Source: a bacterium (GTDB taxonomy: Bacteria; UBA8248). Taken from it: 64,000 nucleotides of DNA. Under the pieces are notes generated by a model. The model saw only the letters and a program-made list of their open reading frames with translations, ran no database searches and was not told the DNA's origin. Below are positions 9,379 to 44,534 of the stretch, in pieces; position 1 is the first letter of the stretch, and the number at the start of each line of letters is the position of its first letter. Both the position numbers and the translations under genes were made by a program. The DNA is taken from the NCBI GenBank assembly GCA_965213625.1, contig CBDBZU010000004.1, forward strand, positions 512,001 through 576,000, written 5' to 3'.

Positions 9379-9645
9379 GTCCGCTCCTTTCACAAATGGG
9401 GCCGCCCGCCCGGCGGCAAATGAATTGAGGATTTCAAGCCGCATGCATCGCGGCGTCTCTCACCTCTCCTCGTCAACCGGCCTTCGCCGGACTTGAAACC
9501 AGGACTCCATGAATCCCTCGGGAGATTCCAAGGTTTCATAAATGGCCTTCGGGATCAATGCCGCTCAGACGACGCGGGATGAGGGCATGCGCGTTCATCC
9601 GTCTTGTTCGGAATGAATGTATGGGATCGGTCCGCAATTCCCCTT

Positions 9646-9679
9646 GCAGGGTCAGACATATATGTCTGACATACATGCG
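9646..9679. repeat. REP-like palindrome, left part of the repeat interrupted by IS110
   Basis: GTCAGACATATATGTCTGAC is a perfect palindrome; the homologous intact copy is at 42767-42840. Confidence 0.8.
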
Positions 9680-9719
9680 TACATGGACGCCCCCCTGGAA
9701 TGCAAGCGGTTTTTTGGGA

Positions 9720-9905
9720 GGGTTCGGCGCAAAGCGGTTCGACTCAGTCGTACATTCGGCCTCTTCGTTGCGGCGCTTCGTAACGGCCGCGGGCCCGTAT
9801 GGAGATGCGCGGGTCGGGTCCGAATCGGCCCGGCGAGCTCGATGGTTCGCTCGTCGCATGTAACTGGTTGCCCCGACCCCGTCTCGATGACCGTTTGCCC
9901 TTACT
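9720..9905 (-). ncRNA. Putative bridge RNA (seekRNA) of the IS1111 element
   Basis: Non-coding region downstream of the recombinase. It has guide-like segments TACATGCG and GCCGGGCCG (target) and CTCCATACG and ATGTACGA (donor). Boundaries are approximate. Confidence 0.8.
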
Positions 9906-9956
9906 CCTCCTGTGGCCTGCCCACATTCCTCCCGGCTCTATCCGCGCGCCCGCCGC

Positions 9957-10982
9957 TCAGGCGAGGGGCGCCGGTTCCCTGTAGTCGTCCTTGTTCCGCA
10001 TCAGCGCCCACGCGATGCGCGCCATTTTGTTGGCCAGCGCCACCGCGACGAGCATCCTCGGCTTGCGCGCCAGCATCCGGGCCAGCCACGAACCCGGCGG
10101 CGCGCCGCGCCGGAGCGCCTGGCGAATCACCGACATCGCGCCCGTGACCAACAGCCGCCTCACGTCGCGCTGGCCCATCTTCGATACCCGGCCCAGGCGG
10201 GGCTTGCCCCCCGTCGAGTGTTGCCGGGGCACCAGTCCCAGCCAGGCCGAGAAGTCCCGGCCCCGCCGGAAGTTCTCCATCGGCGGCGCGAAGGCACGGA
10301 TCGCAGACGCCGTAACCGGACCCACCCCCGGGATACGCATCAGACGCCGCGCCTCCTCGTCCGCGTGGACGCTCGCGTGAAGCCGACTCTCCAACTCCCC
10401 GATCTTCCGGCTCAGACCCGCGATTTGCTCCAGAAACACCTCGCCCAACTCCCGAACCGCCACCGGCAGACCCGATTCCGCTCCCCGAACCGCCGCCGCC
10501 AGACGCGTGAGGCCCACCGGACCCTGCCGCGCGACCACCCCGAACTCCGCCAGGTGTCCCCGCAACGCGTTGATCGTCTGCGTCTTCTGGCGCTTCAGCA
10601 AATCCCGCGCCCGGAACAGCATCCCCTCGGTCTGCTGCTCCTCGCTCTTCACCGCCACGAGATGCATCGTCGGTCGTGAGGCCGCCTCGCAAATCGCCTC
10701 CGCGTCCGCCGCGTCGTTCTTGTGGCGCTTCACGTACGGCTTCACGTAGGCCGGCGGCGCGAGCCGAACCTCGTGGCCGAGCTTCGCAATCTCACGGCCC
10801 CAGCGGTGCGCCCCCGCGCACGCCTCCATCGCCACCACGCAGCGCGGCTGTTTGGCCAGGAAGTTCAGCAGACCCGCCCGACCGAGCTTCTTGCGGAACG
10901 CTACCGAACCGTCCGCGCGCGCCCCGTGGAGTTGAAAACTGTTTTTCGCCAAGTCGATGCCGATGATGTAGACTCCTTCCAT
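9957..10982 (-). CDS. IS110 family recombinase/transposase (DEDD)
   Basis: GIDLAK, AMEAC, KNDAADA, IPGVG, GLVPRQHSTGGK, VALANKMARIAW; GGAGG RBS before ATG 10982. Confidence 0.95.
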   Translation of the reverse strand: MEGVYIIGIDLAKNSFQLHGARADGSVAFRKKLGRAGLLNFLAKQPRCVVAMEACAGAHRWGREIAKLGHEVRLAPPAYVKPYVKRHKNDAADAEAICEAASRPTMHLVAVKSEEQQTEGMLFRARDLLKRQKTQTINALRGHLAEFGVVARQGPVGLTRLAAAVRGAESGLPVAVRELGEVFLEQIAGLSRKIGELESRLHASVHADEEARRLMRIPGVGPVTASAIRAFAPPMENFRRGRDFSAWLGLVPRQHSTGGKPRLGRVSKMGQRDVRRLLVTGAMSVIRQALRRGAPPGSWLARMLARKPRMLVAVALANKMARIAWALMRNKDDYREPAPLA

Positions 10983-11224
10983 GGATGCCTCCTTCCGGGC
11001 GGTGTGTGACGTTGCCTCGCCACATTCTAAACTGCCGGAAGGGGGCGTCCACCCCATCGGCCCTGCCCTTCGCCTTCACAACGCGGGTCACATGTATGTG
11101 CGGGGCGGTCCCGAGGAGTCGGTTCCGACCGAAGAGGGAGGAACCACCACCTGCACCCCATCGCAGCGTCGAGACCAGAACATGACGCTGGAATGACGAC
11201 CGGAATGCGGAATCATTTTTTCTC

Positions 11225-11282
11225 GCAGGGACAGGCCTCCGTGCCTGTCCTGCAAGGGACAACCACGGAGGGTAGTCCCTGC
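11225..11282. repeat. REP doublet (GCAG/GTAG-type hairpins)
   Basis: GCAGGGACAGGCCTCCGTGCCTGTCC followed by inverted GGGACAACCACGGAGGGTAGTCCCTGC. Confidence 0.7.
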
Positions 11283-11483
11283 GCCCCTCTCATGCCCGCT
11301 CCCTCCCTCCCCCTTTCCGGGGCTGGCCGAGGGATTTCTTTTCAGCTAATATGAGGCCATACGCAGTAAAGTGGATTAAACAACCGCCCAAACTTGGTTA
11401 TCAGGCGCACCGGCGCAGAGGGTTCCATTCAGGTTCGCCCGAGTGTTCTTTTTCGTTTTTGATTCTGTGGGGGAAATCCGGTC

Positions 11484-41595: not shown

Positions 41596-42660
41596 ATGAT
41601 TGTGAAAACGACAGGAGTAGCCGTCATCGGCGCAGGCGGCATCGGAACGCTCAGGGCGCATTCTTGCGCGCAGATCCCCCAGGTGGACTACCTCGCCGTG
41701 TGCGACATCGTGCCCGAGAAGCTCGACCGCCTCGCGGAGTCGGTGCGGGCCGACGTGGCGACGGAGAAATACGAGGTGGCGATACGGGACGAGCGCGTGG
41801 GCGCCGTCATCGTTTCCTCGGACGAGGAGTTTCATCACGGCCCGGCGGCCCTGGCGGCCGAACTCGGAAAGCCCGTGCTCATCGAAAAGCCCTTCGTCCT
41901 GGACCTGGACGAGGCGGACGACATCCTGAAGAAAGCCGATGCGTCGGGTGCGGAGATTTTCGTGGGCTACACCCAGCGCTACAGAAGGCGCTTTCTGCTC
42001 GCGAAACAGGCGGCATTCGCCGGACAGCTCGGCGACATCGTGATGGCGCTCGGCAAGATTTACGTGACGCGCGCCGTGGGCGAGGCGGTGGCGAAGCGCT
42101 CGCCCAACACCACGCCCTCCATCAACACCCTCACCTACATGGTCGACCTCATCCTCTGGTACATGGAGGGAAAAAAACCCGTCGAAGTCTACGCCCGCGC
42201 GGCGAGCTTCGTGTTCAAGAAATACAACCGCGACGATTTCCAGTGGATGATCGTCACCTTCGACGACGGGAGCGTGGCCACGCTCGGCACGAGTTGGCTC
42301 CCTCCCCACCACTGGCCTGCCTATACGGCGACGATGGAGATCGACTTACAAGGCACCAAAGGTTCGTTGAACGTGGACGACGCGCACCGCGACGTAATTC
42401 TCGCGCCCGAGGATCCGATTCCCTGCCCCTACACGCCGGAGCACCAGGTGAACGTCGCCTTCCTGGGCTCCGCCATGCCGGGAGATTTCGTGATGGGTGA
42501 GTTCTTCGGCCCCATGAAGGAAGAGACAGACGCCTTCGTGCGCCACATCCTGGGAATCGGCGGGGTGGGACTCGCCACGGGCGCACACGCGAGAGACGTA
42601 CTCGCCCTCACCATGGCGGCGGACCGCTCCTGCAAGGAGGGCCAACCCGTCTCGCTTTAG
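41596..42660 (+). CDS. Gfo/Idh/MocA family oxidoreductase
   Basis: GAGGIG, VLIEKP, VGYTQRY. Confidence 0.9.
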   Translation: MIVKTTGVAVIGAGGIGTLRAHSCAQIPQVDYLAVCDIVPEKLDRLAESVRADVATEKYEVAIRDERVGAVIVSSDEEFHHGPAALAAELGKPVLIEKPFVLDLDEADDILKKADASGAEIFVGYTQRYRRRFLLAKQAAFAGQLGDIVMALGKIYVTRAVGEAVAKRSPNTTPSINTLTYMVDLILWYMEGKKPVEVYARAASFVFKKYNRDDFQWMIVTFDDGSVATLGTSWLPPHHWPAYTATMEIDLQGTKGSLNVDDAHRDVILAPEDPIPCPYTPEHQVNVAFLGSAMPGDFVMGEFFGPMKEETDAFVRHILGIGGVGLATGAHARDVLALTMAADRSCKEGQPVSL

Positions 42661-42691
42661 GGTCCGGGTGGATATGGCGCGATCGTTGCTT

Positions 42692-43019
42692 CAGGGGTTG
42701 TTGAAAAACTCCTCCTCGATCGGAATTGACAACTACCGTCTTTCCGGCGTCATTGCCGCTTCTGTTGTATGTCGGACATATATGTCCGACATACATGCGG
42801 CCCTGCCTCTTCGCCTTCACAATGCGGGTCGCATAATATGTGGCGCTCCCAAGTAGGGAGCGCCACCTACACGTGTATCTACATCTCGACCAAGGGGGTG
42901 TGGATCGGCCCGGTCCACTAGGGGTTTTTCAACAACCCCCTCATGGGTGGAGTGTTTCCTACATTTGCGTCAGTGGGGGGAAGAATTCCGACCGAGTATG
43001 ACTTTTTCAACAGCCCCTG
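42692..43019. mobile_element. MITE-like element with CAGGGG(T/C)TGTTGAAAAA termini containing REP-like palindromes
   Basis: Left CAGGGGTTGTTGAAAAACT (42692). Inverted copies at 42921-42939 and 43001-43019. No ORF. Confidence 0.65.
42767..42870. repeat. Perfect 28-bp palindrome, intact IS110 target repeat, and GTAG hairpin
   Basis: GTATGTCGGACATATATGTCCGACATAC-ATGCGGCCCTGCCTCTTCGCCTTCACAA…; GTGGCGCTCCC-AAGTA-GGGAGCGCCAC. Confidence 0.85.
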
Positions 43020-43040
43020 CAGATGTAGCCCGCATTCCCG

Positions 43041-44534
43041 CTAGCGCGGCATGAGATTCCTGATCTGTGCCTCGAGCGGCTCCGTGGTGAGCCGCTGGAA
43101 ACCCAAGTGGCGGGAGAGGGAATCGCCGTCGTGGCGCTGGCCGTCGCGCCAGATTTCCATCAGGAATCCGCCGCTCTCGCGATTGGCCCACCACCTCTTA
43201 CCGAATTTCGTCTTCAACACTTCGGCCATCTGGGCCTGGAGCATCCACGCCCTCAGATAGTTCGCACAGTAAAAAAACGGGTCCACATCGTCGAGATAGG
43301 ATATTCGTGGGTATTCCACCCTCGTCGCCGAACTGAGTTTTTTCTGATAGGCAGTGTCCTTATCCTCTAGATCAGCACCCTGGTGAAGAGTGAGCTCATA
43401 ATCAATTTTCGCCGCATAGCGCCTCAGCATATAGAGTTCGAAAAGCGCATTGTGCGCCAGAAACGCCGCGTAGTCTGACGCCTCACCGCCCAGTGCGTCC
43501 ACGAGCCAGAGCGGCTCGAGCAGCAGGTGATCGAAGAGCATGGCGAACCCTTCCGTCACGGAGTTGTCCCCCAGGCGCTTCCACTCGAAAGGCGCATCCG
43601 CCGCCACGCCTGCGAAATGAAGCGCGTGACCGAGTTCGTGCCAGAATGCGCTGTAATCGTCATAGCCGCCCCGAGGCCTGATGACGAGATAGACCTCCTC
43701 CGGCACGCGAATCGAGGCGCAAAACGCGCGGGGGCTCTTGAGCGGGCGATCCTCGATGTCGAGGCGCACCCGGCCCTCCGCTGAGAGATCGAGGCCCATC
43801 GAGGAACAAACCTCTCGCGCCGAGGCTTCGATCTTCTCCGCCGGGAAAAGAGCGTCGTACGCCGTACCCCGGAAACAGTACTGCGCATCGTGGCGCTGCG
43901 CGGAAGAAGGCGGAACACCCATCCGGCTCAACGCCTCTTCCATCGCCTCGGCGTAAAGTGCGCCGGTGCATTCCAGAAAACGCTTCATCTCGTCCCTGAC
44001 CGGCTCAAGCTCATAGCGCTTCAGCGCCGCCATCATCCCCAGGTAGCCCTCGAACTCCAGGTCATCGGCCATCCCGTGGGTCGCGCGGTGAATCTGCTCC
44101 AGAAATACGTTCTTCTCCGCCAGGGCCTCACAGCGGGCGTTTTCCAGAAAAGTCCGCCTCCCGCGGTCCGACTCGTTCAGGAGCGCGACGGCGCTTTGCC
44201 GGTAGGGGATGGACTCACCCTCAGTCGTTTTCACCATGGTTCTGGTCTCGAACAAAAGCGCCTTCTCGCTCAAATCCCTGGTCTCGTTGCGTATATGGGC
44301 CAGAGTCAGGAAGCCGCGCAGTTCGGCCAATCTCAGGGACTCGGCTGCATCGTCCGCCGAGTCGGCGAGAGAAGTAAGTGTATCGATGTTTTCGCGGGTG
44401 AAGAGGTCGGCGTATTCGGAGAAAATCTCGCTCAGGCGCACATCTTCCTTGAGGCCTGCGCCGACCTCGTACCATTCCTTGCGTGATTCGCCGAGGAACG
44501 CTTCGGCGCGGGTGCGGAGGTCAGCCAGGCGCAT
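43041..44534 (-). CDS. M3/M32-like zinc metallopeptidase
   Basis: KSPRAFC, HELGHALH (HExxH), downstream TEGFAMLF. Confidence 0.75.
   Translation of the reverse strand: MRLADLRTRAEAFLGESRKEWYEVGAGLKEDVRLSEIFSEYADLFTRENIDTLTSLADSADDAAESLRLAELRGFLTLAHIRNETRDLSEKALLFETRTMVKTTEGESIPYRQSAVALLNESDRGRRTFLENARCEALAEKNVFLEQIHRATHGMADDLEFEGYLGMMAALKRYELEPVRDEMKRFLECTGALYAEAMEEALSRMGVPPSSAQRHDAQYCFRGTAYDALFPAEKIEASAREVCSSMGLDLSAEGRVRLDIEDRPLKSPRAFCASIRVPEEVYLVIRPRGGYDDYSAFWHELGHALHFAGVAADAPFEWKRLGDNSVTEGFAMLFDHLLLEPLWLVDALGGEASDYAAFLAHNALFELYMLRRYAAKIDYELTLHQGADLEDKDTAYQKKLSSATRVEYPRISYLDDVDPFFYCANYLRAWMLQAQMAEVLKTKFGKRWWANRESGGFLMEIWRDGQRHDGDSLSRHLGFQRLTTEPLEAQIRNLMPR

Follow-up and report, generated by a model that had tools for sequence, protein, structure and literature searches.

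The intergenic DNA around position 42798 of the window (the whole stretch of 64,000 nucleotides analysed) raises the question of whether a short repeat found there is a vacant landing site for an insertion sequence (IS) located 31 kb away at 9680-11059, and if so, by what means the site would be recognized. The initial annotation regarded the repeat as an empty target of this IS and as one copy of a REP-like family into which the element inserts. On the evidence presented below, it is very probable that 42792-42803 is vacant and fully competent as a site of integration for the IS1111-type element at 9680-11059, and that this element is guided by RNA into one variant of the REP repeats.

The Empty Site

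The site lies within a 380-bp gap between two convergent open reading frames (ORFs), 41596-42660 on the plus strand, which encodes a GFO_IDH_MocA oxidoreductase, and 43041-44534 on the minus strand. Its parts are as follows:

42766-42795 (no strand): 30-bp perfect palindrome, a type-B REP hairpin (TGTATGTCGGACATA/TATGTCCGACATACA) with 15 perfect pairs centred at 42780/42781
42767-42870 (no strand): REPIN-like composite of type-B hairpin, target, spacer, degenerate type-A half and GC hairpin
42792-42803 (plus strand): unoccupied IS target TACATG-CG-GCCC, the same as the split target at 5/5 filled sites and matching both guide patches of the IS
42826-42840: degenerate type-A half GGGTCGCATAATATG, part of the REPIN-like composite
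42840-42870: GC hairpin with a CTAC tag, part of the REPIN-like composite

Global alignment of the joined IS flanks (25 nt before 9680 and 25 nt after 11059) with 42775-42825 gave 3 differences in 51 columns. The earlier statement that 42788-42830 equals the joined flanks apart from a few differences proved accurate; those within this interval amount to one indel (an extra T in CCTCTTC) and one substitution (AAT for AAC), and the similarity extends to approximately 42840. The match is not a matter of chance, as the genome contains the 14-mer CATACATGCGGCCC nine times, whereas base composition would predict 0.05 occurrences. With a BLAST search of the empty site against the genome, the two hits to the IS flanks overlapped by exactly 2 nt, the CG at 42798-42799, which agrees with the core position proposed initially; strand exchange is predicted to occur at or within this CG. 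The palindrome had been described as perfect and 28 bp long with the CG 3 bp beyond it. It is perfect, but its full length is 30 bp (42766-42795, containing the 28 bp), and hence the CG lies 2 bp beyond it, the distance of 3 bp being true of the 28-bp core.

At the locus orthologous to 42798, no 1.4-kb insertion was found in any of the 22 congeners searched. The genes flanking the orthologous gap are 86-92% identical among congeners, and the gap itself (window 42661-43040) ranges from ~31 to ~770 bp among the 22, a variation in length that is consistent with the gain and loss of REPIN units there.

The Insertion Sequence and Its Ends

The element and the two halves of the target that it interrupts are composed of the following features:

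9651-9679 (no strand): left half of the filled target, with a type-B hairpin core (9651-9670) followed by ...CATACATGCG
9680-11059 (minus strand): IS1111-type insertion sequence, 1380 bp counting one copy of the CG core
9684-9695 (no strand): subterminal inverted repeat at the transposase-downstream end, GGGGGGCGTCCA on the minus strand
9957-10982 (minus strand): transposase gene, 341 aa
11041-11051 (no strand): 11-bp subterminal inverted repeat at the transposase-upstream end, TGGACGCCCCC on the minus strand
11060-11089 (no strand): right half of the filled target, GCCCTGCCCTTCGCCTTCACAACGCGGGTC

The transposase was matched by the Pfam families PF01548 (DEDD_Tnp_IS110; 2.3e-12, 47.4 bits with a cut-off of 29) and PF02371 (Transposase_20; 5.5e-23, 81.6 bits with a cut-off of 21.3), and by NF033542, "IS110 family RNA-guided transposase" (316.5 bits, cut-off 140). 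Its nearest solved structures are those of the ISCro4 and IS621 transposases, for the C-terminal domain only; the match to PDB 8wt6 (E = 2.3e-08) is confined to the C-terminal 120 residues. Site-specific insertion, a short shared core as the only duplication and scarless empty sites also fit the IS110 family.

Members of the IS1111 group are described as encoding transposases of 330-350 aa with a GL-P----(S/T)G motif, and as having subterminal inverted repeats of 11-13 bp, outside which the element extends unequally, by 7 bp on the left and 3 bp on the right (PMC11187229). Judged by these features, the IS at 9680-11059 is assigned to the IS1111 group. The one feature examined that departs from the description is the length of the extensions, which are 6 nt (ATGGGG) and 4 nt (TGTA) outside the inverted repeats and, with the 2-nt CG, which can be assigned to either end, total 12 nt instead of 10. 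The inverted repeats, which are conserved in relatives, the non-coding DNA downstream of the transposase gene (277 nt versus 77 nt upstream), the motif GLVPRQHSTG read in the translation and the length of the protein bear out the original naming of the element as IS1111.

A sigma-70-like pair, recognized by consensus match only, is present at 11027-11054 on the minus strand (TGGACG, 16 nt, TAGAAT); its -35 hexamer lies inside the inverted repeat, and it would be a resident promoter. A promoter formed by the joining of the IS ends was also considered. The computed end-to-end junction gave a single site of at least 9/12 matches, and as this was the same pair, wholly inside the transposase-upstream end, a junction-formed promoter finds no support.

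Filled and Empty Sites in the Genome

The genome searched comprises 4.15 Mb in four contigs with 59% GC. It contains five copies of the IS, of which three are full-length (1380 bp) and 100% identical, suggesting recent activity, and two are 1035 bp long, identical to each other, with an in-frame deletion of 345 bp inside the transposase gene. All five occupy the same spot, ...CATACATGCG before the IS and GCCC... after it, inside a superfamily of palindromic repeats; no copy was found away from the 12-mer TACATG-CG-GCCC in the 4.15 Mb, and the possibility raised at the outset that other copies lie outside the repeat family is not borne out. At each copy the dinucleotide CG is found at both junctions, and the IS itself ends in CG; it follows that a 2-nt core, of which the empty site has a single copy, delimits the element. 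The left flanks of the five filled sites represent three different hairpin types, and the part that stays constant is the 12-mer.

A genome-wide count of filled and empty copies, which had been suggested as a check, returned nine exact, uninterrupted copies of the 12-mer, all inside palindromic REP units, next to the five filled (5/14). The commoner variant TATATGCGGCCC is present in 21 copies, none of them filled. Among all TA[C/T]ATGCGGCCC sites, 14 are TACATG and 21 are TATATG, and 5/5 filled sites belong to the former (one-sided p = 0.006). The view that the IS targets a REP-like repeat is supported, all its copies lying in REPs; what is recognized is the 12-nt TACATG-CG-GCCC and not the palindrome as such, and targeting is limited to a minority REP variant, given that 0/21 TATATGCGGCCC sites are filled.

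Joined flanks of the window's own IS copy were encountered in a 244-nt contig (depth 2.8) from X13, one of four public runs compared and the only one to provide such evidence. This contig aligns to 9519-9677 and then to 11058-11140; exactly 1380 nt are absent from it, the joint being ambiguous by 2 nt. It differs from the window by 13 letters in the one part and 3 in the other and stems from a related organism.

The two 1035-bp derivatives (G000:C4:592776-593810 and 2342102-2343136, outside the window) occupy different REP sites. Each retains the two IS ends together with the guide region, and the 345-bp deletion lies between short direct repeats; the derivative has the appearance of a non-autonomous element mobilized with the aid of full copies.

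A further observation concerns the flank on the transposase-upstream side, of which 47 bp (spacer and REP half) are 100% identical in three of the five IS copies (G000:C4:592729-592775, 1823692-1823738 and 2343137-2343183, outside the window). On the opposite side, each of these three copies has a hairpin of a different type. Elsewhere in the genome the 47-mer is absent, the next best match being 89.6%, and a stretch of 40 nt or more is common to just one other pair of the 49 type-A cores. The identical flank may have arisen by gene conversion, with IS copies as the source, or by co-transfer of some form. Co-mobilization of the 47 bp by means of an alternative IS end was rejected, as the sequences outside the 47-mer have no common core and the reconstituted sites would be devoid of the GCCC read by the 3' guide.

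The Target as a REP Variant

The genome holds 91 distinct palindromic units of four related types:

Type A, strict core GGGNCGCATNNATGCGNCCC: 49 units
Type B, GTCGGACATATATGTCCGAC (20-nt core, up to 3 mismatches): 26 units
Type C: 5 units
Second family, GGGCGGAC-N6-GTCCGCCC: 11 units

A GTAG(G)/(C)CTAC tag accompanies 45/49 of the strict type-A cores (on both sides in two of them), and 48/91 units have a partner within 60 bp. Of the genomes surveyed, 10/12 from the same genus have the type-A pattern (21-131 per strand), as opposed to 0/8 from other genera; the reversed pattern, used as a control, gave 0. The second family is multi-copy in 5/5 genomes checked (11-45 per strand; control, 0). The GTAG tag is an established criterion for REP sequences (PMC3733652), and together with the inverted pairs and the restriction to one genus it provides the hallmarks by which these repeats qualify as REP/REPIN. 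Their copy number is modest compared to that of classical REP hosts.

A candidate RAYT is also encoded. The 177-aa ORF at L001:1453-1986 (minus strand; G000:C4:1978566-1979099) has HUH-like and Y motifs and matches Pfam Y1_Tnp with 25.1 bits (cut-off 23) and NF047646 (REP_Tyr_transpos) with 64.6 bits, which is under the cut-off of 80. REP units are present on both sides of this RAYT-like ORF, and one is inside its frame (translated ...ERDAYMRPL...). One of the nine empty IS target sites (C4:1979335-1979346) is located ~240 bp from it.

With a REP variant as target, insertions of the IS fall in extragenic repeats, and vacant copies of these provide it with a reserve of sites. Such landing may be of advantage to the element, and the repeats could in this sense act as a "safe harbour".

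Guide Patches and the Predicted RNA

The non-coding DNA downstream of the transposase gene contains a series of short patches that correspond to the target and to the IS ends:

9700-9904 (minus strand): predicted seekRNA/bridge RNA region with a scaffold conserved in 19 elements, within the 277-bp downstream non-coding region; RNA ends approximate
9855-9863 (minus strand): 5' target guide TTACATGCG, complementary to CG + CATGTA on the transposase-sense strand of the target
9834-9854 (minus strand): hairpin between the two target guides; pair columns 64:79 are changed on both sides in 11/19 sequences
9826-9834 (minus strand): 3' target guide GCCGGGCCG, of the same sense as GGGC + CG, to pair with the other strand
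9797-9805 (minus strand): conserved TCTCCATAC, candidate guide for the transposase-upstream IS end
9749-9757 (minus strand): donor guide GAATGTACG, with a match to the terminal 5 nt of the IS + CG

Read in the orientation of the transposase, the target is GGGC-CG-CATGTA, and the patches follow each other in the order UUACAUGCG (the complement of CG + CATGTA), hairpin and GCCGGGCCG. The two guides match the target over 8 and 6 contiguous nt (TACATGCG and GGGCCG), both matches ending on the CG; they correspond to opposite strands and overlap at the crossover dinucleotide. The same arrangement, with the complement of the top strand 5' of the match to the bottom strand, is reported for IS1111-type seekRNAs (PMC11187229), and the bridge RNA of IS1111 elements is placed in the right end (Durrant et al., 2024; PMC11208160).

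The mechanism that would account for these matches is one in which an RNA made from the downstream non-coding region, and presumably bound by the transposase, selects the target. Its patch UUACAUGCG would pair with one strand of the target, over the core and the bases to its right, and after the short hairpin, the patch GCCGGGCCG would pair with the opposite strand, over the core and the bases to its left, while a second loop of the RNA would read the IS ends in the same way. The IS is envisaged to excise and integrate by conservative recombination at the 2-nt CG core of the target and of the joined IS ends, the 12-nt target being, on this proposal, a variant of the genus-specific GTAG-tagged REP/REPIN repeats.

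No Rfam 15 family was matched at E <= 1 in a scan of 9400-11300, and when folded as a single sequence the non-coding region was no more stable than shuffled versions of it (z = +0.72). Support for a structure comes from the alignment fold: RNAalifold on 19 sequences assigned both target patches to a single internal loop flanked by covarying stems and the donor patches to the surroundings of a second stem-loop, with compensatory changes in 12/40 predicted pairs and a small covariation energy term (-2.22). The conserved AU that follows the 3' patch is identical to the first two bases of the IS and resembles the "handshake" pairing of IS621.

Regarding the recognition of the IS ends, the donor patch GAAUGUACG and the IS terminus vary together among relatives (ATATACG, ATAGACG, ACAGATG and ACACACG). 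For the transposase-upstream end, CCATCG in the hairpin loop was considered as a guide; it fits the element's own sequence but mismatches in L004 and others, and was consequently dropped in favour of the conserved TCTCCATAC, a candidate that is invariant in relatives, as is the IS end that it would read.

Covariation of Guides and Flanks in Relatives

The correspondence between guides and target was followed in 80 loci encoding transposases that are 57-80% identical. For 57 of these, many of them on short contigs, the anchor(s) or a flank were not found, leaving 23 usable loci in which the IS ends were located by motif. These 23 were obtained with fuzzy anchors; a stricter regular expression gave only 11 loci and shifted the register. 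The two target patches emerged as variable islands in an otherwise conserved region. The mean longest common substring between a guide and its own flank was 5.4 (5') and 5.6 (3') over the 23 loci, compared to 3.3 and 3.2, respectively, over 478 non-self pairs. Matches of at least 6 nt were observed in 10/23 (5') and 12/23 (3') self pairs and in 7/478 and 3/478 non-self pairs, figures that overstate the independence of the sample as sister copies from the same genomes are included. The core covaries as well, with TG at both junctions in L008, L009, L011, L027 and L029.

A single-copy relative in the same genome (C4:927666-928960, outside the window) is 77% identical and shares both the ends and the CG core with the IS. 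It lies in GGGGTATC-CG-TTCATC, a sequence that is not REP-like and that matches the guides of this relative on the right side only. In several other relatives, namely L002 and L086 (G011), L018 and L087, the transposase-downstream end has a tail of ~70 bp in duplicate, beginning directly after the donor-guide DNA. That DNA has the sequence of the IS terminus, and this suggests that the recombinase sometimes uses guide-coding DNA as a pseudo-end.

A Natural Guide Series in Congeners

Elements that are 83-89% identical to the IS over its full length were identified in four congeners, G002 (two copies), G004, G008 and G011 (eight copies). In G002, both copies (2/2) have the guides GTACATGCG/GGGACG (RNA GTACAUGCG) and reside in GGGA-CG-CATATATGCGTCCCCTAC. 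The guides of G008 are GTATATGCG/GGGTCG (RNA GUAUAUGCG and GGGUCG) and its element is in GGGT-CG-CATATATGCG; those of G004 are UUACAUGCG and GGGUCG, with the element in GGGC-CG-CATGTATG, one mismatch. Instances of mismatch are thus the 3' guide GGGTCG of G004 at GGGC-CG and also the 5' guide TACATG of G002 at CATATA, and since guides tolerate mismatches, the discrimination between C and T (TACATG versus TATATG) may not be strict.

With G011, two sub-variants that are three bases apart in the 5' patch occupy two different REP families. The sub-variant AUGCGUGUCC is found in the second REP family, at GGGT/G-CG-GACACGCAGGTCCGCCCCTAC (three concordant copies), and the sub-variant AUAUAUGUCC in the type-B hairpin, at GTAGGT-CG-GACATATATGTCCGAC (three concordant copies). 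Six of the eight copies are thereby concordant with their own guide, and L090 and L093 are not. The right flanks of these two copies (G011:C1:1959172-1960946 and 693859-695633) fit the guide of the other sub-variant, as would follow from homologous recombination between copies of the IS, with rearrangement of the chromosome or conversion of the guide region as the outcome.

Altogether, at least five guide programs are present in five genomes, all directed at GTAG-tagged repeats of three types, and because the second REP family is multi-copy in all five genomes checked, the lineage stays on REP-type repeats while its guides change. It is conceivable, though rather unlikely, that the IS lineage is a dedicated parasite of the REP/REPINs of its host genus, following their diversification by edits of a few guide nucleotides. 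The IS may also carry repeat halves along, as the 47-bp REPIN half common to 3/5 copies would indicate; if true, the element would also reshuffle or seed REPINs and hence constitute a second mobile layer on the RAYT-REPIN system.

Alternative Explanations

A resemblance between two copies of one REPIN is to be expected in a genome with ~91 related palindromic units, and on this ground the IS might be thought to have inserted at random, with the repeat not a preferred target at all. This is already contradicted and barely credible, as the insertion point of 5/5 copies is one and the same dinucleotide of the 12-mer, with no copy elsewhere in 4.15 Mb, and as 2/2 copies in G002 and 6/8 in G011 occupy sites matched by their own guides. 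It is also very improbable that the transposase protein reads the structure or sequence of the REP hairpin directly, with the matches in the non-coding region being incidental. All targets lie beside or inside palindromes, and the guide RNA, for which Rfam offers no match, is a prediction from sequence, both of which would suit direct reading by the protein. However, the patches change with the flanks in relatives that have non-REP targets (L005, L008 and L012), the near-identical sub-variants of G011 differ in 5' guide and in the repeats they occupy, and three left-flank hairpin types are present at the element's own five sites with the 12-mer constant; moreover, RNA guidance has been demonstrated experimentally for four IS1111 members (PMC11187229).

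The history of position 42798 is a separate issue, insofar as the site may not be virgin and instead may have been vacated by precise excision of the IS. Excision within the IS110 family is described as scarless (PMC11208160), in the X13 contig, which comes from a related organism, the sequences bordering the window's filled copy are contiguous with no scar, and the 100% identity of the full copies suggests recent activity. The two histories are, on the other hand, indistinguishable in sequence, and the IS is present at the orthologous locus in 0/22 of the congeners searched, such that a former occupation of 42798 is considered improbable. Were it true, it would refine rather than replace the reading of 42792-42803 as an unoccupied site for the RNA-guided element, because the site is a competent target either way.

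Relation to Known Systems

The principle that IS110-family elements reach REP sequences by means of a guide RNA is already established. IS621, ISPpu9 and ISPpu10 each target REPs, REP targeting by IS110-family elements has been treated generally (Tobes and Pareja, 2006), and RNA guidance was published in 2024. An earlier comparison of the element with IS621 was apt with respect to REP targeting and not with respect to group, as IS621 belongs to the IS110 group and the element to the IS1111 group, and the two proteins are only distantly related. The core is CG in the element and CT in IS621. The element has long subterminal inverted repeats, unlike IS621, in which the RNA is at the other end and the order of the guides is reversed. 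Common to both are a DEDD recombinase with a C-terminal PF02371 domain, a 2-nt core, scarless excision, a REP target and, as predicted for the element, an RNA with separate loops for target and donor (Durrant et al., 2024; PMC11208160); the REP target of IS621 in Escherichia coli was reported by Choi et al. (2003).

With ISPpu9 and ISPpu10 of Pseudomonas putida KT2440, as with the element, multiple copies are found at one REP/REPIN position with an invariant dinucleotide (Ramos-Gonzalez et al., 2006; PMC12288879). ISPpu9 is described as a member of the IS110 group with an AG core and without inverted repeats (PMC12288879), and it resides in another host with another REP family. On the side of the target, the closest parallel is with the REP/REPIN-RAYT systems, described as GTAG-tagged palindromes of 20-30 bp that often form inverted pairs, are restricted to a genus and flank a Y1 transposase gene (PMC3733652, PMC3337134). 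This likeness concerns the target and not the IS, and the RAYT-like ORF found here is under the NCBI cut-off with a REP unit in its frame.

Among known elements, ISEc11, ISPa11, ISKpn4 and ISPst6 of the IS1111 group, for which seekRNAs are described (Siddiquee et al., 2024; PMC11187229), can be likened to the element by their published features. These include the inverted repeat (11 bp here, 11-13 bp reported), the long downstream non-coding region, a transposase of 341 aa within the 330-350 aa range with GL-P----(S/T)G present as GLVPRQHSTG, the two overlapping target matches and natural reprogramming between relatives. The differences are in the extensions (6 + 4 nt plus the 2-nt core, versus the reported 7 + 3), in the target, which is a GTAG-tagged REP, and in the host, with its 4.15-Mb genome of 59% GC. 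A close relative may already be listed among published seekRNA/bridge RNA predictions. What is new is the precise anatomy of the element together with the natural series of reprogrammed guides. For annotation, the exact ends, core and target of the IS are fixed, and nine further landing sites are predicted in the genome. In the congener series (83-89% identity), guides 1-3 nt apart go with sites that differ accordingly, including those of two sub-variants in one genome, and the series thus provides material from which rules of specificity and mismatch tolerance may be derived for the IS1111-type seekRNAs, which have been less studied than IS621.
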